A DNA stretch of 64,000 nucleotides, taken from IMG/VR virus record IMGVR_UViG_3300012944_000002, positions 1 to 64,000 of that record. The stretch is one strand, 5' to 3'. A program made the translations under genes and the position numbers. This stretch comes from a virus. The number at the start of each line of letters is the position of its first letter. Position 1 is the stretch's first letter. Below, piece by piece: positions 18,008 to 31,919 of the stretch. The notes under the pieces are model-generated. The model searched no databases, was not told the origin of the DNA, and saw nothing but the letters and a program-made list of their open reading frames with translations.

Positions 18008-18141
18008 TGGCGTACCAGGAAGCAGCTCATGCAGGCGGCCCCGTTCCCACGCGGCGACCGGGCCGGTCACAGCTCGGACACAGCCAGGGCGGGACGCGCT
18101 GACCCCTGCCACGCTCGGGGGCTCAACCACTAGGGGGACCC

Positions 18142-19006: not shown

Positions 19007-19579
19007 TCAGCACGCCGGCCCGATGGTCACCTGTACCCCCTGGGGACGCTTCGCAGGCTCAGCGTCGGCGCTGTACCCCGGGTTGTCGCTCGCCCAAGCC
19101 GCTTCCGTGCAGTAGCCGGCGTCGGTCGGCGACGTCTCCTGAAGCCACTGGAACGTGGGCTCGCAGGTCGCCAGGTTGTAGTTCCCCAGCACCTGAGCAC
19201 TGTCGGGCAGGTCGGGCACCTTCATCCAGACGACGACGTCCCGCTCTGGGCCGCAAGTTTTCTCGGTGGGCGAGGCCGTGGTCGGTGGGTTCGTGGTCGG
19301 CGCCGTGGTTGCCGGTTCCGGTTTGGGCGACAGCGTGGTGGCGGTCGGCGCCGATGGCCTGCCGGAGCTGGGCGCCGCCGAGGAACTCGACTCGGCCGCG
19401 CTCGCCGCGGCCTTCGCGATCGGCTTGCTGTCGCCCTTCTTCGGCGGTCCGGCGATCGTGCCGATGATGAACATCAGCACGAGGAACCCGACGACTCCCG
19501 ATACTGACCACACCGTGACCTTCTTCCGCCGCGACCAACTACCCGGCCGGCCGCGCCCTGATCCATCGTTCAGCGTCAT
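19007..19579 (-). CDS. membrane-anchored secreted protein with Ser/Ala/Pro/Thr linker
   Basis: Track ORF 19007..19594 minus. ATG at 19579 is preferred. Has a TM helix VWSVSGVVGFLVLMFIIGTIAG, a low-complexity linker, then a Cys-containing domain. Confidence 0.6.
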   Translation of the reverse strand: MTLNDGSGRGRPGSWSRRKKVTVWSVSGVVGFLVLMFIIGTIAGPPKKGDSKPIAKAAASAAESSSSAAPSSGRPSAPTATTLSPKPEPATTAPTTNPPTTASPTEKTCGPERDVVVWMKVPDLPDSAQVLGNYNLATCEPTFQWLQETSPTDAGYCTEAAWASDNPGYSADAEPAKRPQGVQVTIGPAC

Positions 19580-19699: not shown

Positions 19700-20956
19700 C
19701 TATCCGAACTGAAAGCCCGGGTGGCATTTCGTGCAGGGGTGATCCGTCTTGTAGCCGTTACTGTCGATGCGTTCGCGCATGCGGCCGATGGGTTCGCACT
19801 CGACGTCCCCGCACCATGGGATCCCCGCGGCCTCGGTCGGGTTGGCCGGCGTGGTCCAGACGTCGTTGGTGTACGGCCGGTGGGGTTCGCGGCGGCCGAG
19901 GTCGGCGGCGACGGCAGCCCAGCCGGCCACCGTGCTGTCCGTGCCCCCGCCCATGCGGGCTCGGGCGCGAGCGGTGGCCTGTTCCCACATCCCGCCGGCC
20001 GGAGCTTCCTGGCGACCCGCGCCGAGGATGTCCTCGACCGTCAGGTTCGCGTACTCCTCGGCGGTCGGCATCCGGCCACGGACGCCACCACGGGCAGCAG
20101 GAGGAGCGGGGAGGGGTTCGGCGTCGGGCAGCACCTCGGGCTTCAACCGGTGGGCGTACACGGCGGCTGGTGAGTCCACGGCGGCCGTCCCGAGGTCGAG
20201 GTAGAGCGCCAGCCCGTCCACCGTCCAGCCGGACGCCAGAGCGGCCGTCAGCCGATCGGCGATCGTCCGTCGCTGCCGCTTGTCTGGCGTCTTGCCACGG
20301 TAGTCGAGAGCGGACGCGATCTCTTCGGCTGTGGATCTCGAATCATCGAGAGAACCGCCGCCTCCGCCCTCCTCGGTGTCAGGCGCGACTGCGGATGGGT
20401 CCGTGGAGGGCTCAGCCACGGAGGAGGAGGTAATACCCGAGGGGGTTTTAGAAGAGGGGTAAAGAGGGGTTGGGGTCACCTGAGAGGTGACCCGTTCTGC
20501 ATCCCAGAGGTGACCCGTTTCCTCTGACAGGTGACCCTCTCCATCCGAGAGGTGACCCGTTTCCAGCCCATCGCCCTCAGAATGGGTCACCTGAGAGGTG
20601 ACCCTCTCGACTCTCGCGCACTGCCCCAAGAACCCGTCATGCGGCGCCTCGGGACAGAGCGGCGCGATGCGGTAGACGGCAGCCTGCCCAGGGAACCCCG
20701 ACAGCTCACGGCCGCCGTGCACTGCGTAGGCCAAGACGCCCTTCTTCATCAGCTTGCCGATGGCGTTCTTCCATCCGCCAGCGCTCTTGCCCGTGCGCTT
20801 GAGGATGTACGACTGGTGAACGCCCCCCTTGGGCCAGGTCTCGCGGGTTCGGTCGTTGGCGTTCTCGGCGAGGACGAGCAGGTCATTCCGCTCACCAGCC
20901 GTCAGGCCCGCGTCCTGCCAGTGATCGAGGACTTCAACGATGATCCTGATCCCCAT
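19700..20956 (-). CDS. winged-helix initiator-like protein (AICE/plasmid Rep-like) with C-terminal zinc motif
   Basis: Track ORF 19700..20998 minus. ATG at 20956 is preferred. N-terminal wHTH-like domain, a central repeat RVTSQVT...GHLS x3, and a C-terminal PWCGDVECEP...HPCTKCHP. Carries an iteron array in its own coding DNA. Confidence 0.6.
   Translation of the reverse strand: MGIRIIVEVLDHWQDAGLTAGERNDLLVLAENANDRTRETWPKGGVHQSYILKRTGKSAGGWKNAIGKLMKKGVLAYAVHGGRELSGFPGQAAVYRIAPLCPEAPHDGFLGQCARVERVTSQVTHSEGDGLETGHLSDGEGHLSEETGHLWDAERVTSQVTPTPLYPSSKTPSGITSSSVAEPSTDPSAVAPDTEEGGGGGSLDDSRSTAEEIASALDYRGKTPDKRQRRTIADRLTAALASGWTVDGLALYLDLGTAAVDSPAAVYAHRLKPEVLPDAEPLPAPPAARGGVRGRMPTAEEYANLTVEDILGAGRQEAPAGGMWEQATARARARMGGGTDSTVAGWAAVAADLGRREPHRPYTNDVWTTPANPTEAAGIPWCGDVECEPIGRMRERIDSNGYKTDHPCTKCHPGFQFG
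20473..20604. repeat. iteron array (five GGTGACCC direct repeats, two 21-bp palindromes)
   Basis: GGTGACCC at 20486, 20509, 20530, 20551 and 20597, spaced 23, 21, 21 and 46 bp. GGGTCACCTGAGAGGTGACCC at 20473-20493 and 20584-20604. Confidence 0.7.
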
Positions 20957-21109
20957 CAGGCGCGTCCCCGCGATCGAGTCGAGACGCTCGGAGCGCACCG
21001 GCCGAAGCCAGGAATGGACAGAGTCATTGCGCGCAGGCGCCTTTCGTGCCGGTGGGGTGACCTGTTGATCGGCGGCCGGGCGGCTTTACGTCGCCCGGCC
21101 GTGGGGTGT

Positions 21110-21631
21110 TCAGCTCGGCCGAATCTCCAGCTCCATCGGCCAGTCCGCGACATCCACGCCGTGCGCTGCTGCGAGCAGGCCGCGGATCGTCAACTCCTGC
21201 TCCAGCGGGTCTTGGCCGATCGGCATCGACAGCACCCAGAGCCAGTGCCGGCTGTTCGTGAGGCGGCGGATGGAGCCCCGGAAGTCCAGGCTCGGCGCAG
21301 CGATCTCGCGGTACTCCGCCCGCGCCATCAGGATCAGCGTGTTCAGCGGCATCGACAGGAAGTCCCACCGATCCAGGGCTTTCGCGTCGTGCAGGCCGCG
21401 AGGGCTCAGGTCGTAGTCCGGCACGTCGATGGGAATCGGCGTCGTCTCGCTGCCGGGGCACCTGTCGCCCGTCCACGACGACCGGTGCTTGCGCAGCAGG
21501 CCGTCGAGGCGGACGTACTCACGGTCTTGGCATCCGGGGCACACGGCTCGGCGACGCTGCGGGCTGGGCGTGACGGTCGACACAGGGGTGGCTGGCGCGG
21601 GAACGGCAGACCCCTTCGTTGGTAAAGTCAA
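21110..21631 (-). CDS. hypothetical protein
   Basis: Track ORF 21110..21631 minus. TTG start preceded by AGGAGAG. Contains CPGCQ. Confidence 0.55.
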   Translation of the reverse strand: MTLPTKGSAVPAPATPVSTVTPSPQRRRAVCPGCQDREYVRLDGLLRKHRSSWTGDRCPGSETTPIPIDVPDYDLSPRGLHDAKALDRWDFLSMPLNTLILMARAEYREIAAPSLDFRGSIRRLTNSRHWLWVLSMPIGQDPLEQELTIRGLLAAAHGVDVADWPMELEIRPS

Positions 21632-21735
21632 GACGGAGCTCTCCTATCTAGCGACTGGATCTCTACCGATCAGCGGGCTGCAACCCGCTGGTTCTTGCGG
21701 CGGCCGGGTGGTGGTACACCCGGCCGTTCGTGCGT

Positions 21736-22245
21736 TCAGGTGACGGTCGCGCCGATCTCTGCGACTGCGGCCTCTACGACTTCAACGGGATCACCGAGCG
21801 GCGTGAAGTCGAACCATTCGCCGCGCACTCGATGTCCTGCGAACCGCCGATGCAGGGCCCTCTCGTAGGGACCTTTCGTCACCCAGAGAAGGGACAACAC
21901 CATGGGATGCCCGATCTGAAGAAGGGCGAGACGCTTCTTCGGATCCTTAGCCCATCCGATCTTCACCAGACCTGAACCCTTGATCCCGATCAGGTAGGTG
22001 TGAGACGAGTCGGGTTGGTAGCTGCTCCCGAGACGCTTCTGTCGCGGCGGCTCCACTTCCCTGGGGGCGGCTTTGGTGTGATCGCTCTGACAGTGATGGG
22101 TCGGCGGGAATCGCAGATCGTCCACGGAGATGGGCGGCGAGTCCGAAGTGGCGTCCAGGTCGAGGCCGAGGCGCCGAGGGTCCTCCCAGGTATACGCGGG
22201 GCGCTCGTGTCGAGCTGGCAGGGTTGGGTGTAGCGGATCGGGCAT
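21736..22245 (-). CDS. T5orf172 / GIY-YIG-superfamily domain protein
   Basis: Track ORF 21736..22245 minus. YLIGIKGSGLVKIGWAKDPKKRLALLQ...YERALHRRFAGHRVRGEWFDF. Confidence 0.75.
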   Translation of the reverse strand: MPDPLHPTLPARHERPAYTWEDPRRLGLDLDATSDSPPISVDDLRFPPTHHCQSDHTKAAPREVEPPRQKRLGSSYQPDSSHTYLIGIKGSGLVKIGWAKDPKKRLALLQIGHPMVLSLLWVTKGPYERALHRRFAGHRVRGEWFDFTPLGDPVEVVEAAVAEIGATVT

Positions 22246-22319
22246 ACGTGTCCCCTTCGATACGCACGGTCACCACTTCCCAGCGTGAAGCGGCGTTGCG
22301 TAGCATTGAGTCTGACCGC

Positions 22320-22331
22320 TTCTTCGAAGAA
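22320..22331. promoter_or_regulatory. candidate Kor/GntR operator
   Basis: Perfect palindrome TTCTTCGAAGAA in the divergent gap between 22245 (minus start) and 22410. The same motif recurs at 23255 and 23290. Confidence 0.55.
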
Positions 22332-22409
22332 CTTCAAGGGTTTCGCAGAGTTCGCACCTCAACTGGTCGGTGGCTAGCATCTCTGAAGAAGCCGATCTAG
22401 GAGGAAACC

Positions 22410-23159
22410 TTGCCCAGCAAGCCCGAGCGCGGGCCGCGCCGCCATCAGGAGATCGCGGACGAGCTGCGCGCGAAGATCCTCAGCGGCGAGCTAGCACCGG
22501 GCTCGAAGCTCGAAGGCGAGAATGGCCTCATGGAGCGGCATGTGGCCGCTCGATCCACAGTGCGGCAAGCCCTGGACGCCCTGCGCGCCGAAGGCCTCAT
22601 CGAGAGCAAGCAGGGCGTCGGCGTCACGGTCCGGGCCTTCCGTCCGATCAGACGGCCCGCAGTTCAGCGCCTCTCCTCAGAGGTGTGGCACGCCGGGCGG
22701 TCAATCTGGGACGTGGACCTAGAGGACCGCCCGCGTCGCGTTGAGGTGGACGTCAACGAGGTCGATGCGCCTGATCATGTGGCCCAACTCCTGGAGTCCG
22801 ACGAGCGCATGTGCCGCCGCAGCCGGCGCTTCCATGTGGAGGGGCGGCTCATCCAGACGGCCGTCTCGTATGTGCCAATGAGCTTGGCGGCTGGCACGGC
22901 CATCACCCAGCCCGACACCGGCCCTGGTGGCATGTATGCCCGACTTGCCGAGATCGGCCATGCGCCTGCGCGGTTCAAGGAGGAGGTGAGGACGAGGATG
23001 CCCACGCCCCAGGAGGCGGCCGATTTCAGCTTGGGCCCCGGTACTCCCGTCTTCCAGATCATCCGCATCGCGGCAGACCAGAATGACCGCCTCGTAGAAG
23101 TCAACGAGATGACGCTCGACGGGTCCAACTACATCCTGGAGTACGTCTTCTCCTCCTGA
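22410..23159 (+). CDS. GntR-family transcriptional repressor (HTH plus UTRA domain), KorSA-like
   Basis: Track ORF 22410..23159. TTG start after AGGAGG. N-terminus IADELRAKILSGELAPGSKLEGENGLMERHVAARSTVRQALDALRAEGLIESKQGVG. Confidence 0.85.
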   Translation: MPSKPERGPRRHQEIADELRAKILSGELAPGSKLEGENGLMERHVAARSTVRQALDALRAEGLIESKQGVGVTVRAFRPIRRPAVQRLSSEVWHAGRSIWDVDLEDRPRRVEVDVNEVDAPDHVAQLLESDERMCRRSRRFHVEGRLIQTAVSYVPMSLAAGTAITQPDTGPGGMYARLAEIGHAPARFKEEVRTRMPTPQEAADFSLGPGTPVFQIIRIAADQNDRLVEVNEMTLDGSNYILEYVFSS

Positions 23160-23174
23160 CCTGCGAACTCCTGC

Positions 23175-23209
23175 GCCCCCCATCGCTTCGGCGGTGGGGG
23201 GCTTCTTCG
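23175..23209 (+). terminator. rho-independent terminator after the GntR gene
   Basis: 12-bp stem GCCCCCCATCGC / GCGGTGGGGGGC (one G-U pair) with a TTCG loop, followed by TTCTTCGT. Confidence 0.6.
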
Positions 23210-23254
23210 TGCGTCGGGGGCGCGCCGGGAGCGTGCGAACTAGAAGAGCTTGCC

Positions 23255-23301
23255 TTCTTCGAAGAACTCGGCTTCACTGAGGATGTGCCTCTTCGAAGAA
23301 G
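23255..23301. promoter_or_regulatory. two candidate Kor/GntR operators upstream of the transfer-type operon
   Basis: TTCTTCGAAGAA at 23255-23266 and core TCTTCGAAGA at 23290-23299, in the lower-GC gap before GTG 23337. Confidence 0.55.
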
Positions 23302-23336
23302 ATAAGCACCCCTTCAACCGCGCCTCAGGAGCCCCC

Positions 23337-23582
23337 GTGTGCCACGACCCGACTGCCCCGACTACGGCCCCCGCCACCGTTGAGCCGTTGCTGCGGGCAC
23401 AGCAGGTCGCGGACCGCCTCGACGTCCACGTGTCCACCGTGTACCGCCTCGCCGACTCCGGACGCATCCGCGCCCACCGCATCGGCGAAGGGCGGCTGCG
23501 GAAGCGCGGACTGCGCATCCCCGAGTCGGCCGTGGCCGAGTTCCTCCAGGCGTCTCAGATCTCCGCCGAGGAAGTTGCCTGA
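23337..23582 (+). CDS. excisionase-family (HTH_17/MerR-like) DNA-binding protein
   Basis: In frame with track ORF 23250..23582. GTG 23337 is preferred (CAGGAG upstream). LLRAQQVADRLDVHVSTVYRLADSGRIRAHRIG. Confidence 0.7.
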   Translation: MCHDPTAPTTAPATVEPLLRAQQVADRLDVHVSTVYRLADSGRIRAHRIGEGRLRKRGLRIPESAVAEFLQASQISAEEVA

Positions 23583-23662
23583 CCGCACAAAACCCCGGCC
23601 GGCGCTGTGAACGCCGACCGGGGCCCGACCGCCCGAAGCCTGCAAGCACCCGGGAGATCATC

Positions 23663-23923
23663 GTGAACAGTACTGCCACCGCAACCCACCCCACCCCGCC
23701 GCGTTTCCCCGACCACGTCGCGGCCCGTGTTGCCGCGGCGTGGGAGGACTCACGGTCCGCCATCCCGCGCCTGCCGATTCCTGGCCCGCGCGGGCCGGTC
23801 GACCATGACGGCGACTCGGACCCGGACATGGACGAGGCGTACCGCCGGGTGCGCGAGAGCGGCCGGGCGATCCGCGCCGGTCTCGCCGAGTACCGCGAGT
23901 GGGCTGCGGGGGCTGCGGCATGA
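23663..23923 (+). CDS. hypothetical protein
   Basis: Track ORF 23663..23923. GTG start after GGGAGA. Confidence 0.5.
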   Translation: MNSTATATHPTPPRFPDHVAARVAAAWEDSRSAIPRLPIPGPRGPVDHDGDSDPDMDEAYRRVRESGRAIRAGLAEYREWAAGAAA

Positions 23924-24126
23924 GCGCCGACCAGCCCGTCATGTCGTTCCCGACCCGCAAGGGCGCGGTGGTCGAGGTGACCGCGACCGGCAACAACCTC
24001 TTCCCGTACCGGTTCGAGTGCTCGGGCTCGGAGAAGCACCGCAGCCTCGGCTACTCGGCGCTTCCCTTCGCCCGCGATGGCGCCAAGAAGCACGCCGACG
24101 GCTGCCGGAAGCGGGGTGCGAAGTGA
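23920..24126 (+). CDS. hypothetical protein
   Basis: Internal ATG 23920 of track ORF 23899..24126 (ATGA overlap). Confidence 0.5.
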   Translation: MSADQPVMSFPTRKGAVVEVTATGNNLFPYRFECSGSEKHRSLGYSALPFARDGAKKHADGCRKRGAK

Positions 24127-24191
24127 TCACCTCCTGCGACTGGTGCGGCCAGGACGACCGCGAGTCGTTCCCCGCCGGAGCCGACGACTGA
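24123..24191 (+). CDS. very small ORF (22 aa)
   Basis: GTGA overlap upstream and TGATG overlap downstream. Translation VITSCDWCGQDDRESFPAGADD. Supported only by coupling and GC3. Confidence 0.3.
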   Translation: MITSCDWCGQDDRESFPAGADD

Positions 24192-24286
24192 TGACCGCCG
24201 AGGAAGAGCTCGCCCAGGCCGCCCGCGACTACGAGGTCGCGCAGGAATGGCTCAACCCCACACCCGTCCGCGAAGAGACCGACTAG
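24191..24286 (+). CDS. very small ORF (31 aa)
   Basis: ATG 24191 in the frame of track ORF 24077..24286. Supported only by coupling. Confidence 0.3.
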   Translation: MTAEEELAQAARDYEVAQEWLNPTPVREETD

Positions 24287-24329
24287 ACCGCCGGGGCCGC
24301 CGGCACCCAACCCGAGAGAGGAGCCCGTC

Positions 24330-24497
24330 ATGGGCTGGAGCACCAACGACATCGCCTCCGAACTGATCATCGCCTCCGGTGACCCGGCCCGGTTCCACCG
24401 GGTGAACGAGCAGGTTCAGGCGCTCCCGCCGAAGGACCGGCAGGCCGTGTACGAGCGGCTCGCCGACACCACCCCCAACCCCACCGGGGACCGCTGA
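24330..24497 (+). CDS. hypothetical small protein (55 aa)
   Basis: ATG 24330 after GAGAGGAG. High GC3. Below the track cutoff. Confidence 0.5.
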   Translation: MGWSTNDIASELIIASGDPARFHRVNEQVQALPPKDRQAVYERLADTTPNPTGDR

Positions 24498-24576
24498 CGG
24501 CCGCTGCGTCGCCCCCGGGCCGCCACGGTCGGGGACGGCGCAGGACCGGACAGCCCGGCCCAGACAGGAGAACCAC

Positions 24577-24744
24577 ATGCCCATCGTGCTCGGTTTCAGC
24601 AACGGCGAGCCCACTGACCCGACAGACCAGGGACTCATCCCCACTCACAGCTACACCGTGAACCCCGGCGAAACGGTCACCGAGACAGCCGCGGACGGCA
24701 CCACCCACACCTACGCCGCCACCAACGCGGACAGCACCGAATGA
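24577..24744 (+). CDS. hypothetical small protein (55 aa)
   Basis: ATG 24577 after CAGGAGAA. The stop overlaps the next ATG (ATGA). Below the track cutoff. Confidence 0.5.
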   Translation: MPIVLGFSNGEPTDPTDQGLIPTHSYTVNPGETVTETAADGTTHTYAATNADSTE

Positions 24745-24929
24745 GCCTCCGCGACAAGCTGCTCGGCCGCCCCGAGGACGTCAAGGCGTCCAAGGCCGCC
24801 GACTCCGCACTGCACGCCAACCAACGCGCCGACGAGGCCGCCGGGATCCACGACGAAACGCCCGAGTACCTGGAGCTGAACCGCGCGGCCAATGAGGCCG
24901 CCGCAAAGCTCCCCTGGCACCTCCGCTAG
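24741..24929 (+). CDS. hypothetical small protein
   Basis: Track ORF 24741..24929. Confidence 0.5.
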   Translation: MSLRDKLLGRPEDVKASKAADSALHANQRADEAAGIHDETPEYLELNRAANEAAAKLPWHLR

Positions 24930-24973
24930 CCACCGACTGACGGCTGCCCGCAACAACCCGAGAGGAACTGCGA

Positions 24974-25729
24974 ATGTCCACCGCTACCGAGGCAGCCGCT
25001 GTCGCAAAGGCGGTTATAGACATCGCAGTTCGCCATGGCGTCGGCGACGAGGCACGCCGGCAGATCGACTGCCTACTCACGGGCTGCGGCGCCGACGCCA
25101 TCTCCGATGTAGTCCGGCTCCTGGAAGTCGGGGCTAAGAGCATCCGTAGAGCCGTCCGCCAGGAGTTGCCGGTGATGGCTACGGGGCTCGCCGAGAACGA
25201 AGGCAACGTGGATGGGGAGCAGTGGCTACCCATACCTGGCTACGAGAACTTGTACAAGGTCAGCACCCAAGGGCGCGTCTACAGCATGGCGCGGAGAGCC
25301 CGCAACGCCATGACGCTCAAAGGCCGCTTCATGGCCCAGCAGCCAACGCGGTTCGGCCACACAAGGGTGAACCTGCGGGATGCCACAGGGCGCCGCATGA
25401 CGTGGTCAGTACACCGCTTGGTGGCCTTGGCCTTCCTTGGGTCGCAGCCCGGGGGTTGCGAGGTGAGACATCTCAACGGAGTCCCAAACGACAACCGCCT
25501 CGAAAACCTCGCGTGGGGGACCAAGGTCGAGAACTCCCAGGACACCCTGCGCCACGGCCGGCACAACTGGGCTTCCAGGACGGAGTGCGCGGAAGGGCAT
25601 CCGCTTCGCGGAGCAAACCTCTCCCGGGACGGCAAGGGCGCCCGCGTGTGCTTGGCCTGCAAGCGCGGTCGCCAGCGCCGATACGAAGAGCGCAAACGCC
25701 AACGGCTCGGCAGATCTCAGATCACCTGA
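24974..25729 (+). CDS. NUMOD4 plus HNH (HNH_3) homing-type endonuclease
   Basis: Track ORF 24974..25729. WLPIPGYENLYKVSTQGRVYS (NUMOD4) and HRLVALAFLG...VRHLNGVPNDNRLENLAWGTKVEN (HNH). Third-position GC is visibly lower than in neighbouring genes. Confidence 0.85.
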   Translation: MSTATEAAAVAKAVIDIAVRHGVGDEARRQIDCLLTGCGADAISDVVRLLEVGAKSIRRAVRQELPVMATGLAENEGNVDGEQWLPIPGYENLYKVSTQGRVYSMARRARNAMTLKGRFMAQQPTRFGHTRVNLRDATGRRMTWSVHRLVALAFLGSQPGGCEVRHLNGVPNDNRLENLAWGTKVENSQDTLRHGRHNWASRTECAEGHPLRGANLSRDGKGARVCLACKRGRQRRYEERKRQRLGRSQIT

Positions 25730-25780
25730 GGCTCGCGGAGAACCGCCAGCCACACCCGCCACCGAGAGAGGAGCCCCTCC

Positions 25781-25936
25781 GTGGGATGGAACCCGTTCGC
25801 CCCGACCTACCCGGAACCCGACACCCCCGCCGACACCACCCTGACCCCCAACCAAGCCCGGCAGGCGGAAGAAGCACGCCAGACCACCGCCCGACTGCGA
25901 GAGCAAGTCCAGCGCCGCGCAACCCGGAACCCGTAA
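25781..25936 (+). CDS. hypothetical small protein (51 aa)
   Basis: GTG 25781 after GAGAGGAG. Below the track cutoff. Confidence 0.45.
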   Translation: MGWNPFAPTYPEPDTPADTTLTPNQARQAEEARQTTARLREQVQRRATRNP

Positions 25937-25974
25937 ACCACCCGACCACCCGCCTCACCCCGAAGGAGCCCGCA

Positions 25975-26172
25975 ATGCGTAACCCCATCACCGCCGCGAA
26001 GGCCGTCGTCCGACTCAAGGCCGCCGACAAGGCCATGGACGCCTACTTCGAGCAGGTCGCCGACCCGACCGTCGAAACCACGCAGTCCCGGTACCTGTAC
26101 CTGGACGTCGAAGACGCCTACGACAACCCGGCGTTGCCCGACCGGTACCGCGACCCCCGCGACCGCACCTGA
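25975..26172 (+). CDS. hypothetical small protein
   Basis: Tail of track ORF 25222..26172 from ATG 25975 after GAAGGAG. Confidence 0.55.
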   Translation: MRNPITAAKAVVRLKAADKAMDAYFEQVADPTVETTQSRYLYLDVEDAYDNPALPDRYRDPRDRT

Positions 26173-26204
26173 TCCGGCACCCACCACACCCGAAGGAGCT
26201 CACC

Positions 26205-26414
26205 GTGCGCGCCATCCTCGGCGGCATCCTGTTCGGCCTCACCGCCGCCTACCCCACGCTCGCCGCGCTGCTCTGGCACGCCACCAGTTGGGCCGCGTCC
26301 CCCGCGGTGGCCGCGGCCGCCTGGTCGCTGCACCAACCCGCCGCCGTCGTAGCGCTCGCCGTGGCCGTCGGCTGGCGGTACGTCGTGCGGCGCATGAGGG
26401 GGCGGACGGCGTGA
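26205..26414 (+). CDS. small membrane protein
   Basis: Track ORF 26205..26414. GTG start after GAAGGAG. Two hydrophobic helices. Confidence 0.55.
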   Translation: MRAILGGILFGLTAAYPTLAALLWHATSWAASPAVAAAAWSLHQPAAVVALAVAVGWRYVVRRMRGRTA

Positions 26415-27433
26415 ACGAGAAGCCCCCGTTCAACCTCGTCGAGTCCTTCACCCTCGCGCCCGGGCTCACGCCGGCCGCCACCCCGCGCGGCGACCGGTGG
26501 CGCACCGTCGGCCACTGGCTGCGCGACACCGGCCTCGGTGTCGTCGGGTTCCTCATCGTCCTCGTCGTCGCCGTGTCCGGCTGGACCGCCAGCTTCATCG
26601 GCCTGCACTCGTTCGGCATGACCCACATGGGCTTGACTGCGCACACCGGCTGGCTGGTGCCCGCGACGTTCGACGGCGCCCCCCTCGGTCTGTCCCTCGT
26701 CGTGTTCCGCGCGTCGATCCATGGCCGCAGCGCCACCGTGTGGCGGCTCCTCATCGTCGTCTTCACAGGCCTGTCGTCGTGGATCAACTACCAGCACATC
26801 AGCGACCCCACCGGCCGGTGGATCGCCTCGTTCATGCCGCCCGCCGCAGTGCTGCTCTTCGAGGGCCTGATGTCCGAGGCCCGCGCCGCGGCAGCCCGGC
26901 GCGACGGGCAGGAACGGCCCCGCCTCCACCCGCTTCGGTGGGTCATCGACCGGTCCGGAACCTGGGCGATCTACCGCGCCTACGTCCTCGGCATCGAACT
27001 CCCCGAGGCGCTCAAGGAAGCGGCCGGAGAGGTCGCGGCGAGCGCCGAGAGCGAGCGCCCCATGGACGCTCAGCCCGAGCGCGCCCCCGACGCTCACACC
27101 GAGGCCCCGGTGAGCGCTCACGGTGAGCGCCCAAGCGACGCTCAGCCCACGCGCTCATCCAGGACCAACCGCGGGCGCTCAGCGGGCGGCCAGAAGAGCG
27201 CGCCCAGGAAGACCACAACCGAGCGCCGCCGTGAGCGCGTCCGTGCGCTCTACGACGAGCTGGACAAGCGGCCCGAGTGGACCGAGATCCGTGACGTCCT
27301 CGTTGAAGCGAAGCTCGCCCCCAGGGCGATCTCCCGCCCCACATGCCAGCGGATCCGCGACGCCGTCGAGAAGAACGAACCGCACCTCGCCGCCCTCGGC
27401 CAGACCAACGTCCGCACACTCACCGGAAGCTGA
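26411..27433 (+). CDS. DUF2637-like membrane protein with C-terminal DNA-binding-type tail (Spd-like)
   Basis: Tail of track ORF 26288..27433 from GTG 26411 (GTGA overlap). Four TM helices in the N-terminal half, then a charged linker and a basic C-terminus. Confidence 0.65.
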   Translation: MNEKPPFNLVESFTLAPGLTPAATPRGDRWRTVGHWLRDTGLGVVGFLIVLVVAVSGWTASFIGLHSFGMTHMGLTAHTGWLVPATFDGAPLGLSLVVFRASIHGRSATVWRLLIVVFTGLSSWINYQHISDPTGRWIASFMPPAAVLLFEGLMSEARAAAARRDGQERPRLHPLRWVIDRSGTWAIYRAYVLGIELPEALKEAAGEVAASAESERPMDAQPERAPDAHTEAPVSAHGERPSDAQPTRSSRTNRGRSAGGQKSAPRKTTTERRRERVRALYDELDKRPEWTEIRDVLVEAKLAPRAISRPTCQRIRDAVEKNEPHLAALGQTNVRTLTGS

Positions 27434-27442
27434 ATCACCGCG

Positions 27443-28210
27443 ATGGATCAACTCACCTGCCAAGCCCAGCGCGACGGCGCGCCCTGCATCCACGCGGCGA
27501 CGCTGGTCGTGCCGGTTCGGCTGTGCGACGAGCACAAGTTGCAGGTCGCGGCGTTCGTCGTGCCGGAGATGCTGGTCGGCGCGTTGCGTGATGCTCGCGC
27601 GCTGAGTAGCCGAACCCTGCCGCCTGACCTTGCGCACCTGGTGGCGAGCGCGCAGGCCGCGCAGATGCCGGCGACGGACCCGCATTCGGCGCTGGTGTAC
27701 TTCATGGCCAACGGCGGCCGGGTCAAGATCGGATACACGAAGTCCCTGTTCAGCCGCGTGCAGTCGCTATCGCTCAGGGAAGACGCGGTGCTACTTCTGC
27801 TGCACGGCGGGATGGATCTGGAGCGGGCGCTGCACGCGAAGTTCGGGGCCTATCGCGTGGCCGACAGCGAGTGGTTCGAACTCGCCCCGGACGTCGTCCA
27901 CTTCATCTCCGGCAAGGGGCCGAAGCACCGCGCCGGCGCCGCGCCCCGTCCGACCAGGGCAAAGGCCCGAGCCAGTCGTTCGCGCGCAGCCAAGAAGGCA
28001 CCGCGCCGATCTCTCGATGAGTGGGTGGATGCCGCCGCGCCGATCTTCCATATCGAGTTCGCCCGACTCCGTCGAAACCCCACGGCTACCGAGTTTGCAT
28101 CCGCACTCGCCGCCGCCGGCCTCGGCGTCGTCTCCGACTCCACAGCCAAGAACATCCGCGCCGAAATCCTCGACCGCGCGCCCCTGCCCAGCCTCGACGG
28201 AGAAAGCTGA
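27443..28210 (+). CDS. T5orf172 / GIY-YIG-superfamily domain protein with basic C-terminal tail
   Basis: Track ORF 27443..28210. VYFMANGGRVKIGYTKSLFSRVQSL...LERALHAKFGAYRVADSEWFEL. Confidence 0.75.
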   Translation: MDQLTCQAQRDGAPCIHAATLVVPVRLCDEHKLQVAAFVVPEMLVGALRDARALSSRTLPPDLAHLVASAQAAQMPATDPHSALVYFMANGGRVKIGYTKSLFSRVQSLSLREDAVLLLLHGGMDLERALHAKFGAYRVADSEWFELAPDVVHFISGKGPKHRAGAAPRPTRAKARASRSRAAKKAPRRSLDEWVDAAAPIFHIEFARLRRNPTATEFASALAAAGLGVVSDSTAKNIRAEILDRAPLPSLDGES

Positions 28211-28212
28211 CC

Positions 28213-30369
28213 ATGACCATCACCGACGGCACCGTCATCAACGGGCACGAGCAGCCGCTGAGGCTCGTGAAGATCGGCGACCCGCCGGCCACGCAGCCCA
28301 GCGCCCCGCCCGTACAGCCGGCCACGCAGCCGACGCCGCCGGCCGAGCGTCCCGCCGCCGACCCGCTGCTGCGCCGCTCCGTCCGCCGAGTGCGCGTCGT
28401 CGTCACCCACGACCGCACCAAGAGCGGTGCCCGTCTGGTCGCTCGCCATGGCGCTTTCGTCGCGGGCGGAGCGGGCATCCTCGCGAAGCGCACTTGGGAC
28501 GGCCGCAGCGCCGCCCGGTACGAGCGGATGATGCGCACCGCAGAAGCCGCAGGTCAGCGCGAGGAAGCCATGATCTGGGAGGAGCGCGGCCGGGCCTTCC
28601 GTGCCGCCCGCCACCAGCGGCGAATGGACCTGCTGAAGGCGCCGCAGCAGATCGCCAAGGCCACCGCGGTCGGCACTGCGGCAACGGCCGGCGGGCTGCT
28701 CGGCCTGGGCGTCCTCATGGCCATCGCCGAGAAGGACCCCTTGCAGGTCATCGTGCCCGTCATGGGCACCATCGAGGCGATCCGGTGGGCCGTGGTCTTC
28801 GTGTCGATCATCTGGGGCCCGGCCGTGTTCCTCGCCCCGTGGATGATCCTCCTGGGCCTGTGGCACACCGGCCACCAGCGGCAGACCGCTCCGCAGTGGG
28901 CACTGCCCCCGCGTCAGCGCAGCGATGGTGAGCCGATCACCCCGTCGATCGTTGTCACCGCCCTGCGCGACCTGGGCATTGGCCAACTGCGGGGCGCCAT
29001 CAAGAACATGGAGGACGCAGGCGCGGGCATGCTCGGCCCCATCGTCATCGCAGGCTGCGGCGTCGAACTCGACGTGCTGCTGCCGTCCGGCGTCAGCACC
29101 GAAGAGGTCATGAACCGGCGGCGGAAGCTCGCCGAGAACATGGGCCGGCACGAGCACGAGGTGTTCGTCACCAAGGCGACCGCCGCCCGCACCGTGCACC
29201 TGTGGATCGCCGACTCCGGGGCGCTCGATGAGCCGATCGGCCCGTCGCCGCTGGTCATCGACCCGGACTCGACCGCCGACTACAAGAACGGCCGCGCCCC
29301 ATGGGGCGTTGACCTGCGCGGCGACGCCGCCCTGATCAGCGTCTACCAGTGCCACATGCTCATCACCGGCCTGTCCAACCAGGGCAAGACCGCGTCGCTG
29401 CGGTCCCTGTTCCTGTGGCTCGCCCACGACGTCGCCGTGGAGTTCCGCGTCGCCGACCTCAAGGGCATCGGCGACTGGTCGTGCGCGGACGGCATCGCCA
29501 CCGAGCTGATCGAAGGTCCCACCGACCAGCACGTCATCGCCGCCACGCTGATGATGGAGGACGGCGTCGCCGAGATGCAGTGGCGCCTCCAGCAGCCCAA
29601 GGGCACCGTGTTCACCCCGCTGGTCCTGATCTGCGACGAAGCCCAGGTCGCTTACGGATCCGGGGCGGTCGGCGACGACAAGCGGCCCTACGGCGGCGCC
29701 AAGGCCACCTCCCGGTACTTCCAGGCGGTCAAGGCGATCCACGACCAGGGCCGCGCGGTGAACGTCACCGTCTGGGAAGGCACCCAGGACCCCACCGACC
29801 AGAACCTGCCCAAGCGCTCCCGCGAGGGCAACCACATCCGCGCCTCACTGGTCCTGGGCACGGAGTCGCAGGCCAGGATGGCGCTGGGCGACAAGGCCAT
29901 CGACGGCGGCGCCGCCCCCCACAAGCTCCGCCAGGGCCTCGACAAGGGCGTACTGGTCGTCGCGGGCGACGGCGTGAAACTGGCGCCCGGCCAATCGTCG
30001 ATCACCATCCGCACGCACTTCATCAACGACGACGAGGCCGACGAGCTCGCCGACCGCATCAAAAACCGCAGGTCAGGCGTCAAGTCCCGCAATGGCGAAG
30101 GCCAGGGCGAGCCGGCCGACCACCTCGCCGACATTGTCCAGGTGGTCGGGGCCGAGCCGCGCGTGCGTACCCCCGAAGTGCTGCACCGCCTTATCGAGCT
30201 CAACCCGGACGAGTACCGCGGGTGGACGTTCCCGGACCTGACGCGCGTCCTCGGCGAGTTCGGTGCTGCCCCCCACCGGTACGACGGCTACCCCGTCGTC
30301 GATCGCCAGAAGGTTGTCAACGCTCTCTCCGAGCGGGACTGGGACGCCGAAATTGACGACTCTGAGTAA
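28213..30369 (+). CDS. traB: FtsK/SpoIIIE-family DNA translocase, TraB/TraSA-like
   Basis: Tail of track ORF 28021..30369 from ATG 28213. TM helices, Walker A ITGLSNQGKT, Walker B LVLICDEAQ, and a C-terminal winged-helix-like segment. Confidence 0.85.
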   Translation: MTITDGTVINGHEQPLRLVKIGDPPATQPSAPPVQPATQPTPPAERPAADPLLRRSVRRVRVVVTHDRTKSGARLVARHGAFVAGGAGILAKRTWDGRSAARYERMMRTAEAAGQREEAMIWEERGRAFRAARHQRRMDLLKAPQQIAKATAVGTAATAGGLLGLGVLMAIAEKDPLQVIVPVMGTIEAIRWAVVFVSIIWGPAVFLAPWMILLGLWHTGHQRQTAPQWALPPRQRSDGEPITPSIVVTALRDLGIGQLRGAIKNMEDAGAGMLGPIVIAGCGVELDVLLPSGVSTEEVMNRRRKLAENMGRHEHEVFVTKATAARTVHLWIADSGALDEPIGPSPLVIDPDSTADYKNGRAPWGVDLRGDAALISVYQCHMLITGLSNQGKTASLRSLFLWLAHDVAVEFRVADLKGIGDWSCADGIATELIEGPTDQHVIAATLMMEDGVAEMQWRLQQPKGTVFTPLVLICDEAQVAYGSGAVGDDKRPYGGAKATSRYFQAVKAIHDQGRAVNVTVWEGTQDPTDQNLPKRSREGNHIRASLVLGTESQARMALGDKAIDGGAAPHKLRQGLDKGVLVVAGDGVKLAPGQSSITIRTHFINDDEADELADRIKNRRSGVKSRNGEGQGEPADHLADIVQVVGAEPRVRTPEVLHRLIELNPDEYRGWTFPDLTRVLGEFGAAPHRYDGYPVVDRQKVVNALSERDWDAEIDDSE

Positions 30370-30532
30370 AGGGAGGCCGTCAGGGAGGCAGGGAGTTCTC
30401 CCTAGCCGCCTCCCTGAACCCTCACTTCGCGTCTGACCTGCTGAAACGCTTCCGTCAGGGAGGCAGTGAGGCGCCCTTGATCGGCCCCGCAAGCCCCCGA
30501 ATTGACGCACAGAGCGACCCGTCCCCTCCCTG
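30369..30532. repeat. clt-like repeat cluster directly after traB
   Basis: CAGGGAGG at 30381-30388 and 30456-30463. Its complement CCTCCCTG at 30409-30416 and 30525-30532. A 15-bp perfect direct repeat CCGTCAGGGAGGCAG at 30377-30391 and 30452-30466. Confidence 0.55.
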
Positions 30533-30558
30533 TCAGCTCACCGAAGGAGTCACACCCA

Positions 30559-30744
30559 GTGATCCGCACCCACCCCAACGACCCGCCGCTGACCACCGTG
30601 GAGGCCGGCCGGATCGCCCGCATCACTGCCATGGCCGTGGTCCGCGGCGGAGTCCTCACCACCCGCCAGCAGAACACCATCGACCGCATCATCATCGGCG
30701 CCTGGAAGCGCGCCGCCCGAGCCGCGGCCCCCGCCAAGAAGTAA
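30559..30744 (+). CDS. hypothetical small protein
   Basis: In frame with track ORF 30502..30744. GTG 30559 is preferred (GAAGGAG upstream). Confidence 0.5.
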   Translation: MIRTHPNDPPLTTVEAGRIARITAMAVVRGGVLTTRQQNTIDRIIIGAWKRAARAAAPAKK

Positions 30745-30756
30745 GGAGCCCAACCC

Positions 30757-31176
30757 ATGTCCCCGCCGACGCTGCCCGAGCCGGTGCAGCCCACCTATCT
30801 GACTCCGACCGGGCAGCAGCCCATCGGCGTGCCGCCCGGCTACATCGTCGGCTACACCGCCGGCGGCGTGCCCACCTACGTGCCGCAGCAGCCCGCCGTC
30901 GTCAACCTCCAGGCCCCGGAGGCGACGATCCCGCCGTGGCTGGTGCAGCTGATCATCGTGACGTTCCTGATCCTCGCCGTGGTCACCGTGTGCGTGGGTG
31001 CAATCTGCGCGGTCGTCGTCCTCATGGGCGGAACGCTCATCGGGATCATCGGCGTGGTCGGCGCACAGCTGCCCCTGGTCGCCGCGACGCTGATCGGCGC
31101 GATCCTCGCCGCCGGCTGGGCCGCATCCAAGCTCAAGGGCGTCGTGCCGGCGGCGAAGGGCCGGGGGAAGCGATGA
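30757..31176 (+). CDS. Pro-rich membrane protein (Spd-like)
   Basis: Track ORF 30757..31176. RBS TAAGGAG. Long hydrophobic C-terminal half. Confidence 0.6.
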   Translation: MSPPTLPEPVQPTYLTPTGQQPIGVPPGYIVGYTAGGVPTYVPQQPAVVNLQAPEATIPPWLVQLIIVTFLILAVVTVCVGAICAVVVLMGGTLIGIIGVVGAQLPLVAATLIGAILAAGWAASKLKGVVPAAKGRGKR

Positions 31177-31331
31177 CCGGAGCCTGCCAGTCCTGCCATG
31201 CCCCCGGCCGCGCGCCGTACTGCAACGCCGACTGCAAAGCCGCCTCCGCCGGACCCGACGGGGTGAACGTGCCCGCACCGCGCGATCCGGTCGACCCGCT
31301 GCCCTCACGCTCCAACCCGACCCACATCTGA
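31173..31331 (+). CDS. small Cys-rich protein (52 aa)
   Basis: ATG 31173 (ATGA overlap) in the frame of track ORF 30477..31331. Contains CQSCH...YCNADC. Confidence 0.45.
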   Translation: MTGACQSCHAPGRAPYCNADCKAASAGPDGVNVPAPRDPVDPLPSRSNPTHI

Positions 31332-31344
31332 CCAGGAGACCGCC

Positions 31345-31524
31345 ATGTCCCGCACCTACCAGACCCCCGCCGGCCAGACCGTCGAGCTCGACGAGCGCGT
31401 CTTCGGCGACCACCTCAGTTGCACCGGCTGCACGACGGACTGGCAGGCGCCCGTCGGCGCCGGTCCGAAGGATGCCGCCACGCACGCGGCGAACTGCCGG
31501 GACGAACCCGAACGGAGCCGCTGA
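31345..31524 (+). CDS. hypothetical small protein (59 aa)
   Basis: ATG 31345 after CAGGAGA. The stop overlaps the next ATG. Below the track cutoff. Confidence 0.5.
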   Translation: MSRTYQTPAGQTVELDERVFGDHLSCTGCTTDWQAPVGAGPKDAATHAANCRDEPERSR

Positions 31525-31919
31525 TGTTCGCCACGACCTTCGTCCTGCTGCTCGTCGCCCACCTGCTCGCGGACTACGCCTTGCAGACGGACCGGCAGGC
31601 CACCCTGAAAGCCGAGCGATCGGCGGCCGGCTGGTGGGCGAACCTGTCCCACGCCGGAACCCACGTCCTTCTGTGCGCGGTCGCCCTCGGCGCGGGGGCG
31701 GCGCTCCTGCCCGGGACCCACCTGCCCGCGGCCCGGACCGTTCTGGCCGTGGCGTGGGTCGGCGTCAGCCACGGATTCGTGGACCGGCGCTGGCCCGTCG
31801 CCTGGTGGATGGACAACACCGGCTCAGCCGCGTTCCGCACCCGCGGCGGTGCGCAGCACGTCGACCAGACCGCACACATCCTCGCCCTCGCCGTGGCCGC
31901 CCTGGCCATCGCAGCCTGA
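31524..31919 (+). CDS. DUF3307-like integral membrane protein
   Basis: Tail of track ORF 31419..31919 from ATG 31524. N-terminus FVLLLVAHLLADYALQTD and several TM helices. Confidence 0.6.
   Translation: MFATTFVLLLVAHLLADYALQTDRQATLKAERSAAGWWANLSHAGTHVLLCAVALGAGAALLPGTHLPAARTVLAVAWVGVSHGFVDRRWPVAWWMDNTGSAAFRTRGGAQHVDQTAHILALAVAALAIAA

Follow-up and report, generated by a model that had tools for sequence, protein, structure and literature searches.

We analyzed a 64-kb stretch of viral DNA (positions 1 to 64,000 of the IMG/VR record IMGVR_UViG_3300012944_000002, hereafter the window), in which a block at 18.5-31.9 kb with genes of the kind found in actinomycete integrative conjugative elements (AICEs) and Streptomyces plasmids is embedded in the genome of a tailed phage. 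A previous examination of the letters alone (the sequence-only reading) had proposed that an AICE/plasmid-type module for transfer and regulation runs co-directionally in this genome, and at the level of homology and anatomy this proposal holds. The core of the block is a gene encoding a TraB-like double-stranded DNA (dsDNA) translocase of the FtsK family, followed by a clt-like repeat element; at the level of homology, the identity of this translocase-plus-clt unit is very likely to be correct. Judged by its sequence relationships, the element is a chimera of a phage and a conjugative element, not an AICE nested in a prophage. Genes were called from the GC content of the third codon position (GC3), and these calls agree with the independent ENA gene calls on the public contig; by both sets, the genes at the coordinates proposed earlier are real. 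The features that carry the argument are the following:

28213..30369, plus strand: TraB-like, FtsK-family dsDNA translocase of 718 aa, recognized by PHROG 1358, a fold match and a Walker A motif.
30370..30472: clt-like locus, directly 3' of the translocase stop codon.
26411..27433, plus strand: DUF2637 membrane protein (Pfam DUF2637, 7e-34).
22410..23159, plus strand: GntR/UTRA (HutC-type) repressor, analogue of KorSA/TraR (Pfam GntR 4e-16, UTRA 1e-19).
22320..22331: operator-like palindrome O1, TTCTTCGAAGAA, located between the divergent genes, ~80 bp before the start of GntR.
23255-23266: operator-like palindrome O2, TTCTTCGAAGAA, upstream of the HTH_17 operon.
23289-23300: operator-like palindrome O3, CTCTTCGAAGAA, upstream of the HTH_17 operon.
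23337..23582, plus strand: DNA-binding protein of the HTH_17 type (Xis/AlpA/MerR-like), encoded first in the rightward operon (Pfam HTH_17, 1e-12).
19700..20956, minus strand: 418-aa candidate second replication initiator (Rep-like), with iterons and weak winged-helix fold matches.
20473..20604: iteron cluster with seven copies of AGGTGACCC, five direct and two inverted, the latter forming two GGGTCACCTGAGAGGTGACCC palindromes.

The translocase gave no direct match to Pfam FtsK_SpoIIIE at E <= 0.01, and a sequence search against the PDB returned no match. It is recognized as FtsK-like by PHROG 1358 (1e-11), a family filed under host takeover, and many of its homologues at 60-74% identity match PF01580. 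Its AlphaFold2 model has a mean predicted local distance difference test score (pLDDT) of 63, with a confident core and C-terminus, and the best PDB matches obtained with Foldseek were the FtsK motor 2IUT (1.7e-10) and the conjugation coupling protein TcpA. The Walker A motif, GLSNQGKT, is located at residue 386, the Walker B residues D475 and E476 are invariant, and the protein keeps every invariant column of the family alignment (A1). The fold, the Walker motifs and the AICE relatives described below agree with the earlier identification of this gene as an FtsK/SpoIIIE TraB-like translocase, the direct Pfam match being absent. For the membrane anchor and the C-terminal winged helix claimed along with it, hydropathy revealed three hydrophobic segments between residues 153 and 216, and the model has long N-terminal helices, so the protein is predicted to be anchored in the membrane by its N-terminal part; residues 637-717 are modelled as helices plus a beta hairpin (block-mean pLDDT mostly 82-94), and in this prediction, which comes from the model only, the C-terminal domain is winged-helix-like.

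The translocase belongs to a large family (>2,600 matches) typical of Streptomyces, Kitasatospora and Actinacidiphila. It is 68-72% identical to the translocases of four canonical AICEs (L012, L013, L081 and L083), which contain GntR, spd/membrane, translocase, rep or Prim-Pol/DUF3631, HTH_17 and integrase genes, Pfam SpdB and DUF6257 being present in three of the four. The same AICE content is found in a 13.5-kb plasmid (L001) whose translocase is 58% identical. Among the best 80 relatives in isolate genomes (59-74% identical), int and rep genes occur within 10 kb in 65, and no phage structural marker of the author's panel was found in the 10-kb flanks of any of the 80. These comparisons place the translocase as an orthologue-level relative of the AICE transfer proteins.

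Directly after the translocase, copies of the 8-mer AGGGAGGC start at 30370 and 30382, followed by the palindrome AGGGAGTTCTCCCT (30390-30403), an inverted copy at 30408, a conserved CTGACCTGC..AAAC core, and the tandem pair AGGGAGGC-AGTGAGGC (30457-30472). The sequence-only reading had noted repeated 8-mers at this place, and they are indeed clustered there, with four of the five window copies of AGGGAGGC within 100 nt after the stop codon (30370-30464). The region after the translocase was aligned from 13 loci, AICEs as well as phages, and a common architecture was found in them that comprises the 8-mers, a GGGAG-TTCT-CTCCC palindrome, inverted 8-mers, a CTGACCTGCG-AAAC core and a tandem 8-mer pair. 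The 8-mer is of the GGGAGGC type in most loci, many AICEs among them, and of the GTGAGGC type in L013, L008 and L006. It varies concertedly, i.e. all the copies within one locus change together, which is the pattern expected of a protein recognition site. Published clt loci are described as 8-bp repeats that TraB recognizes via its C-terminal winged helix (PMC4447253; PMC3583192).

Only the translocase is close to AICE genes. The GntR protein is 29-42% identical to the GntR proteins of AICEs, and the DUF2637 protein has weak relatives (~27% identical) directly 5' of the translocase in the phage loci L006 and L008. In addition, the layout formed by the Rep-like gene, the GntR gene, a divergent HTH_17 gene and an operon ending in a protein of ~700 aa recurs in other phage-like elements: L074, a prophage-like region of the Streptomyces anulatus chromosome with a DnaB gene nearby; L075, a phage-like contig with a holin gene; and the plasmid pSLE1. 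The Rep-like gene lies beside GntR in all three, the HTH_17 gene is in the same position in L074 and L075, and the large protein at the end of the operon belongs to a different family in each. From the closeness to AICEs of the translocase alone and from the presence of this layout in other phage-like elements, we infer a phage-type scaffold whose translocase-plus-clt unit has been exchanged with AICEs.

The proteins in the position of the translocase in L074 (591-2681, minus strand) and L075 (3346-5502, minus strand) have no Pfam match and no canonical Walker A motif, and phmmer relates them only at ~1e-4 to the translocases of L007 and L010. Their genes are followed by an inverted and direct repeat element with other motifs (TAGACGG or AGACCGG), and these proteins may represent an unrecognized family of transfer proteins.

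Regarding the limits of the block, the sequence-only reading had seen no att-like boundaries, and we found no convincing flanking att repeats and no tRNA gene in the window. No recombinase gene was found in or next to the block (17-34 kb); the nearest tyrosine recombinase is encoded ~37 kb from it, past the lysis genes and outside the window. AICE-type Rep proteins (RepSA, RepAM/DUF3631, Prim-Pol) were not detected in the block with Pfam, NCBIfam or PHROG. A repeat search and a k-mer comparison of the flanks for exact repeats of at least 15 nt gave a single 16-mer, GACCAACTCGCCGCCG, present as a direct repeat at 18358-18373 and 33345-33360 (42 nt, 76% identity) that brackets ~15 kb with the whole block. 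Both copies are inside open reading frames (ORFs) and encode WDQLAA in two proteins that are otherwise unrelated. The 16-mer was rejected as an att site given that its copies are intragenic, share the WDQLAA peptide and show no wider similarity; it is probably a chance repeat or a shared motif, the alternative being the core of a relic att site.

An AICE, in the usage attributed to Ghinet et al. (2011), is reportedly the combination of Int, Rep and Tra. The block departs from that definition in having no integrase/attP at its end, no AICE-type Rep and no flanking att repeats.

The regulatory part of the block has the anatomy of a Kor/TraR system. Both the GntR and the UTRA domain were found by Pfam in the protein that had been called a KorSA-like repressor; it also matches the HutC and PhnF models of NCBIfam, all below their equivalog cut-offs, and PHROG 10724 (7.5e-48). 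The exact 10-mer TCTTCGAAGA occurs three times in the 64 kb, at 22321, 23256 and 23290, and all three copies flank the GntR gene; if one mismatch is tolerated, the matches number seven against 0.7 expected, a count reached in 0 of 100 shuffles. Three exact copies of the palindrome, confined to the surroundings of the GntR gene, make the operators that had been predicted for this repressor good candidates. As in Kor/TraR systems, a repeated operator-like site is found at the promoter of the transfer operon, with one copy before GntR and two before the HTH_17 operon. A scan of the block for sigma-70 promoters gave zero sites, a result that is uninformative for Streptomyces. The first protein of the rightward operon, earlier taken as an Xis-type helix-turn-helix protein, matches in addition to the HTH_17 domain PHROG 66, 'excisionase and transcriptional regulator' (3e-9).

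The rightward operon continues from the HTH_17 gene through small ORFs to an HNH/NUMOD4 gene, the DUF2637 gene, a T5orf172-type gene and the translocase gene. All the ORFs of the block are intact and have coding-type GC3. Besides the genes given above, this part of the block and the genes downstream of it include:

23175..23202, plus strand: terminator-like hairpin of 12 pairs that closes the GntR unit, between GntR and the HTH_17 promoter region.
24974..25729, plus strand: HNH/NUMOD4 homing-endonuclease-like gene, an insertion in the operon (HNH_3 3e-14, NUMOD4 7e-12, PHROG 1492 2e-61).
27443..28210, plus strand: T5orf172/MUG113 (GIY-YIG-like) gene between the DUF2637 gene and the translocase gene (MUG113 9e-9, T5orf172 1e-6).
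30502..30744, plus strand: DUF6257-like small protein (Pfam DUF6257 1e-4, below the curated cut-off).
30757..31176, plus strand: 139-aa protein with three hydrophobic segments by hydropathy and no family match.
31524..31919, plus strand: DUF3307 membrane protein with three hydrophobic segments (DUF3307 3e-12; PHROG 2470 'membrane protein' 3e-19).

The DUF2637 protein is SpdB-like in its position and architecture, with hydrophobic segments at the N-terminus, then a linker rich in repeats, and a helical region at the C-terminus; by hydropathy one segment is above the threshold, and the further hydrophobic stretches come from reading the sequence. As SpdB2 in transfer operons, it is a membrane protein encoded just upstream of the translocase. 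Pfam gave a DUF2637 match only, with no match to SpdB_N/HTH_SpdB_C. Within its gene, tandem repeats in a 24-nt register (27029-27154) encode ERP-DAQP-like peptides of the linker.

The T5orf172 gene that lies between the DUF2637 and translocase genes is absent at that position from L006 and L008-L010, and it is a paralogue of the gene at 21736-22245 (37% identity over 73 aa). A T5orf172 homologue also lies beside the translocase of one isolate locus (L102). The genome is rich in homing-endonuclease-like genes, which include that of a 431-aa HNH protein (3409-4704, plus strand) adjoining the phage initiator.

The DUF6257-like protein is 35-46% identical to proteins that are encoded right before the translocase in L007, L011-L013 and L082. 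This homologue is placed immediately 5' of the translocase in AICEs and in the phage contigs L007 and L082; here it is downstream of the translocase and the clt-like locus, a placement suggestive of a local rearrangement or of recombination that went through the clt region. The small genes at 30757..31919 had been described as Spd-like membrane genes; they do encode membrane proteins according to hydropathy, and no sign of Spd identity was found in them. Homologues of the DUF3307 protein are encoded by the AICE plasmid L001 (33%) and by the phage contig L062 (59%).

On the opposite strand, the Rep-like gene is part of a leftward cluster that also contains:

18554..18889, minus strand: 111-aa protein with one hydrophobic segment (gene calls, hydropathy).
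19007..19513, minus strand: 168-aa protein that has a single hydrophobic segment and shares 43% identity with the product of a gene in locus L011.
21110..21631, minus strand: 173-aa protein with a 35% identical homologue in the phage contig L006.
21736..22245, minus strand: T5orf172/MUG113 (GIY-YIG-like) gene (precomputed Pfam).

No Pfam, PHROG, NCBIfam or PADLOC match (PADLOC limit 0.001) was obtained for either the 111-aa protein or the Rep-like protein. The latter has ~140 homologues, all annotated as 'hypothetical' and mostly from Streptomyces, and their alignment (A3) shows a conserved N-domain, followed by a linker of variable length made of GHLS/GYLT repeats and then a middle domain, with a CxxC...CxxCHP zinc ribbon at the C-terminus. 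In the AlphaFold2 model, residues 1-100 have block-mean pLDDT values of 66-92 and the linker is below 40. Seven of the eight window copies of AGGTGACCC are inside the Rep-like gene, within 132 bp, and a palindrome search gave three matches against 0.39 expected; a stretch of 57-58% GC (~20410-20530) overlaps the cluster and reaches past it. The peptide repeats of the linker are the translated iterons, since GGTCACCTG encodes Gly-His-Leu. The iteron core is present in six to seven copies in the homologous genes of L074 and L075, which are only 45-56% identical.

Two other interpretations of the leftward genes were discarded. The iteron-bearing gene was considered as the only initiator of the phage, of the lambda O type, and this was dropped given that the gene at 4704-5789 is a PHROG replication initiation protein; the cluster as a defence system found no PADLOC match on the cluster, and the only PADLOC matches in the block, to GntR and to a T5orf172 gene, are marginal (6e-4 and 9e-4).

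The genome that carries the block was characterized from the window and from public contigs. The window has ~70% GC, and nearly all its genes are on the plus strand. Its early region contains the first replication module, an initiator gene directly 5' of DnaB, and in addition DNA methyltransferase, HNH endonuclease and NUDIX genes:

4704..5789, plus strand: phage replication initiation protein (PHROG 2149 'replication initiation protein' 1.7e-30; PHROG 1408 6.9e-26).
6028..7338, plus strand: DnaB-type replicative helicase (Pfam DnaB 2e-19, AAA_25 1e-24).
12502-13038: NUDIX gene (profile match 3e-14).

The sequence-only reading had assigned to the phage an initiator and DnaB module of its own at 4.7-7.3 kb, which the PHROG match of the initiator (1.7e-30) and the Pfam match of DnaB corroborate; its suggestion of two replication modules appears reasonable, since the phage has this standard pair besides the candidate Rep-like gene. 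It had also cited the NUDIX gene as an AICE accessory. The gene is real and shows no similarity to the compared AICE loci; being placed 10 kb away in the early operon, it was discarded as evidence for an AICE module.

Late genes in the window encode the large terminase, the portal, an SU10-type capsid protein, the tape measure, a BNR-repeat protein and a GH25 lysin. The same genome is present on two independent metagenome contigs with different start points, one from JGI (sample 3300015245, 86,265 bp) and one from ENA (ERZ27253147, 86,329 bp). By coordinate arithmetic, the ENA contig (k141) has an overlap of exactly 141 nt between its ends, at window positions 14167-14307, and the window sequence runs uninterrupted across this junction; the overlap indicates a circular assembly, or a circularly permuted genome, of ~86.2 kb (~86,188 bp). 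The translocase, DnaB, lysin and Rep-like proteins, which were the ones looked up, are identical between the contigs of the two independent samples. A tyrosine recombinase above the Pfam thresholds is encoded ~4 kb past the right end of the window. We conclude that the window is part of the complete, circularly assembled genome of a temperate, Streptomyces-type, high-GC tailed phage from soil. Its backbone is far from that of deposited phages, to which the portal is at most 24% identical; many backbone relatives exist in IMG/VR (terminase 57-86% identical), several of them on contigs with isolate-like identifiers.

Past the lysis genes, the contig L016 encodes a 386-aa tyrosine recombinase (14961-16121, minus strand; Phage_integrase at 30.0 bits plus Phage_int_SAM_1, above the Pfam cut-offs) and a 79-aa GntR protein with the helix-turn-helix domain only (18140-18379, minus strand), and ~5 kb beyond the recombinase there is a second gene with a faint recombinase match; the region with the recombinase and the small GntR gene is likely an integration or lysogeny region. 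In the early region, a fragment at 2028-2774 resembles a Type ISP coupler plus N6 methyltransferase, and the genes at 9330-10751 and 11364-12167 encode two more DNA methyltransferases; the methyltransferases of this region probably protect against restriction, and a 70% identical homologue of the one at 11364-12167 adjoins the translocase in the isolate locus L145. The early operon also encodes a 177-aa protein with a precomputed Pfam match to Acb5 (PF26761) at 15620-16153, possibly an anti-defence gene. The gene of a BNR/sialidase-like beta-propeller protein (61414-62583) lies between those of the tail and that of the GH25 lysin; together with a collagen-repeat protein just past the window, this protein may be a tail-fibre or host-envelope-degrading accessory.

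The distribution of the cassette among phages was analyzed in deposited genomes and in metagenomic contigs. A megablast search with the block found no match in deposited phages, tblastn searches with the translocase, the DUF2637 protein and the Rep-like protein found none in 50,697 deposited phages, and in the same set the motor domain of the translocase gave nothing even at E <= 1. In BFVD, viral FtsK-like folds appeared only at 13-18% identity. Among metagenomic contigs, L007, L009 and L010 carry the translocase with genes for the portal, an HK97-type capsid and the terminase at a distance of 1.5-7 kb downstream, in structural modules unrelated to that of the window; L006 carries it on a contig with a DnaB 78% identical to that of the window, and L082 has a 72% identical translocase with DnaB, Lsr2 and HNH genes nearby. 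Each of these five loci has a gene with multiple membrane spans 5' of the translocase and a repeat element 3' of it; the upstream multi-span protein has 270-430 aa in every phage locus examined, and its gene is adjacent to the translocase in four of the five. Equivalent cassettes are present in several divergent phage lineages, with translocase identities of 31% to 72%. The sequence-only reading had stated that close lytic relatives with the same genes and a translocase lacking any clt-type target would argue for a role internal to the phage; in the other phages found with this translocase family, the repeat element is kept downstream of the gene. The closest backbone relatives with visible upstream context (L068 and L069, terminase 80% identical) have no translocase, and another backbone relative (L070) has only a distant FtsK-like gene. 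The cassette is accessory and rare, but recurrent, since at least four other phage contigs carry it.

Among known systems, the closest in organization are the plasmid-phages. The first of them, pZL12 with its phage form phiZL12, is said to have been described by Zhong et al. in 2010 (J Bacteriol 192:3747). Its relative pSLE1 from Streptomyces leeuwenhoekii (NZ_LN831788) is circular, has 86.4 kb, and carries ParAB and two integrases. Like the phage studied here, pZL12 and pSLE1 are circular (86-90 kb), have ~69-70% GC, and possess a full tailed-phage structural module and tyrosine recombinases. In pSLE1 the GntR gene is likewise oriented divergently to an operon that encodes small proteins and membrane proteins, a large transfer ATPase is encoded last, just 5' of the terminase, and a homologue of the N-domain of the Rep-like protein is encoded beside GntR. 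In contrast, the backbone of pSLE1 is unrelated, matches being restricted to the Rep-like N-domain (40%), GntR (25%) and a DUF6221 protein; no similarity to the translocase could be detected in its transfer protein (774 aa, annotated as 'type IV secretory system conjugative DNA transfer family'), whose gene is not followed by an 8-mer repeat element; and ParAB is present in pSLE1, whereas none was found in the ~83 kb of the phage genome examined. Conjugal transfer of pZL12, a plasmid-phage from Streptomyces, reportedly needs one main tra gene together with two genes next to it (cited in PMC3583192). The sequence-only reading had regarded the full ensemble as unusual for a siphovirus; the arrangement is not without precedent, given pZL12 and the other phage contigs counted above.

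The block shares with the TraB/clt systems (pSVH1, pIJ101, pSAM2 and SLP1 type) an FtsK-like membrane translocase with a C-terminal winged helix, the latter as predicted by the model, a clt of 8-bp repeats beside the gene, a GntR regulator (Kor/TraR) with repeated operators, and upstream membrane proteins (PMC4447253; PMC2440964). It differs from them in that the replicon here is an 86-kb tailed phage, that the block has no integrase-attP pair and no AICE-type Rep, that the membrane partner is a DUF2637 protein rather than one with SpdB_N/HTH_SpdB_C, and that the DUF6257-like gene is on the other side. The Rep-like gene resembles lambda O and RepAM of pMEA300 in carrying the origin-type repeats in its own linker part, after the predicted N-terminal DNA-binding domain and overlapping a stretch of lower GC, and differs from them in that its product has no Pfam match, neither Phage_rep_O nor DUF3631, the origin role being a prediction. 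Another comparable replicon is pAmyja1 of Amycolatopsis japonica (NZ_CP008954, 92.5 kb, circular), which exists as a plasmid and shares the terminase (69%), capsid (63%), portal (57%) and tail genes as well as a GntR gene (33%); the translocase, the DUF2637 protein and the Rep-like gene have no homologue in it. It is annotated only as a plasmid; with ParB-like genes, WhiB and a tyrosine recombinase (L076 and L077), it looks like a phage-plasmid. SpdB2 homologues have been noted earlier in the phages phiC31 and VWB, and FtsK-like genes are a routine annotation in cultured Streptomyces phages, with Geonosis, Jaresh and AndoPrime as actinophage examples (PMC11536984; PMC13587820); these are single genes, with no reported Kor/Tra/clt ensemble (PMC11536984; PMC13587820).

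The reading that we favour, with some reserve, is a GntR-gated translocation of the TraB/clt type that would carry the phage genome, as a circle, from one hyphal compartment or mycelium to another, together with a dedicated iteron replicon. The HutC-type GntR protein would bind the three TTCTTCGAAGAA-type palindromes and repress its own promoter region and the rightward operon, following the logic of KorSA/TraR. Upon derepression, the translocase would form a membrane-anchored ring with the FtsK fold, recognize the clt-like 8-mers through its C-terminal winged helix, and drive the phage DNA, circular and double-stranded, through hyphal contacts or septal cross-walls, with the DUF2637 protein helping transfer as an analogue of SpdB. 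The divergent winged-helix protein would bind the iterons in its own gene, in the arrangement of lambda O and RepAM, and establish a second origin apart from that of the initiator and DnaB, which could serve, for instance, transfer-coupled replication or plasmid-like maintenance. The pay-off would be that the genome moves without virions, either spreading within the mycelium before lysis or achieving conjugative lysogenization of mycelia that have no receptor. As far as the gene content indicates, the phage could probably spread as naked DNA between hyphae besides spreading as virions.

Several observations weigh against this interpretation. The fold matches of the Rep-like N-domain are weak (E >= 0.19); all of them are winged-helix domains and some are N-domains of Rep initiators, so of the winged-helix initiator-like gene with intragenic iterons that had been proposed, the iterons stand and the winged helix comes from weak fold matches only. 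The iterons could instead be operator or partition sites. ParA/ParB are absent from the precomputed Pfam matches over ~83 of the 86 kb, which leaves plasmid-like maintenance unsupported. Homology of the DUF2637 protein to the SpdB of AICEs was not demonstrable (phmmer E = 0.039; hhalign probability 11%); of the DUF2637/Spd-like protein described by the sequence-only reading, there remains a DUF2637 membrane protein near the translocase. With its hairpin fold (z = -2.3), the left half of the repeat element could also plausibly terminate transcription. A correspondence between the translocase C-terminus and the 8-mer type is only suggestive for L006/L008 and for the window and L009, with L013 as an exception in a sample that is too small. 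Compared with AICEs, the cassette is rearranged, having a GIY-YIG-like gene 5' of the translocase and the DUF6257-like gene on the 'wrong' side, and its absence from L068 and L069 indicates that it is dispensable for the phage.

Among the other explanations, the one that survives best, although it is unlikely, is that the translocase has a phage-internal or host-manipulating role, in DNA replication, in segregation or in interference with septation or development, the repeats being a terminator. Such a role has been loosely suggested in the literature for the FtsK-like genes of cultured phages (PMC11536984; PMC13587820), and it is in line with the host-takeover class of PHROG 1358 and with the hairpin located directly after the stop codon, in the left half of the repeat element. 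However, the translocase has its orthologue-level kin among AICE transfer proteins and no BLAST relative in the 50,697 deposited phages, the tandem 8-mer pair lies ~50 nt past the hairpin, the concerted change of the 8-mers points to recognition by a protein, and a gene with multiple membrane spans is always upstream, as in transfer operons. Slightly less probable still is that the cassette is a recently captured passenger, functionally inert and on its way to decay, as its rearrangement relative to AICEs (the DUF6257-like gene downstream, the endonuclease insertions) and its absence from close backbone relatives might suggest; against this, the ORFs are intact with coding-type GC3, family-invariant residues and cis elements are kept, the proteins looked up are identical in contigs from two independent samples, and equivalent cassettes persist in several divergent phage lineages.

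We consider it improbable, to a somewhat greater degree, that the cassette serves conflict rather than its own transfer, excluding or hijacking resident AICEs and plasmids by competition for clt or by mobilizing host DNA. GGGAGGC is common to many AICEs, which makes cross-recognition conceivable, and AICEs are abundant in the likely hosts, which are Streptomyces, Kitasatospora or Actinacidiphila (65 of the 80 best isolate loci); in contrast, the position of a clt-like locus on the phage genome itself, right after the translocase, is the arrangement of self-transfer, and neither the translocase nor the DUF2637 protein nor the leftward cluster has a PADLOC match (<0.001). Finally, that the block is an independent AICE inserted in a prophage, with excision and transfer of its own and the phage as a mere landing site, is very improbable: the 68-74% identity of the translocase to AICE translocases, the AICE-like repertoire of GntR, HTH_17, Rep-like and membrane-protein genes, the 16-nt repeat at 18358/33345 that brackets ~15 kb, a typical AICE size, and the absence of the block from close backbone relatives are outweighed by the lack of an integrase in or next to the block and of a tRNA gene, the location of the 16-mer inside two ORFs, the fact that the translocase alone is AICE-close and that the Rep-like gene falls outside the AICE Rep families, the similar layout built into other phage-like elements, and the phage-typical homing-endonuclease genes inside the operon.

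The presence of the same clade of translocases (68-74% identity) in both contexts indicates that translocase-plus-clt cassettes move between AICEs and phages. With pZL12 as the sole hybrid studied in the laboratory, and its genes unrelated, the phage described here would be a second, sequence-independent solution. Since the cassette is found in at least four more phage contigs and in none of the deposited phages, metagenomes may hold a class that culture collections have missed. As a tentative proposal, to which we give less than even weight, conjugative tailed phages would be a recurrent, overlooked class in Streptomyces and its relatives, in which unrelated lineages exchange translocase-plus-clt cassettes with AICEs and move genomes of 36-88 kb both as virions and as naked dsDNA, aided by the iteron replicon. 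If this is true, conjugative phages would escape receptor-based resistance, and the line between phages and conjugative elements would be blurred beyond the single case of pZL12. The conserved repeat element provides a testable candidate for the recognition site of the translocase, and the GntR palindromes a defined candidate for the regulatory switch. If the cassette works, this phage would have two routes, a receptor-dependent one through the virion and one that depends on hyphal contact through dsDNA pumping of the TraB type, and the second route would alter current views of host range, resistance and the spread of lysogeny in mycelial bacteria.

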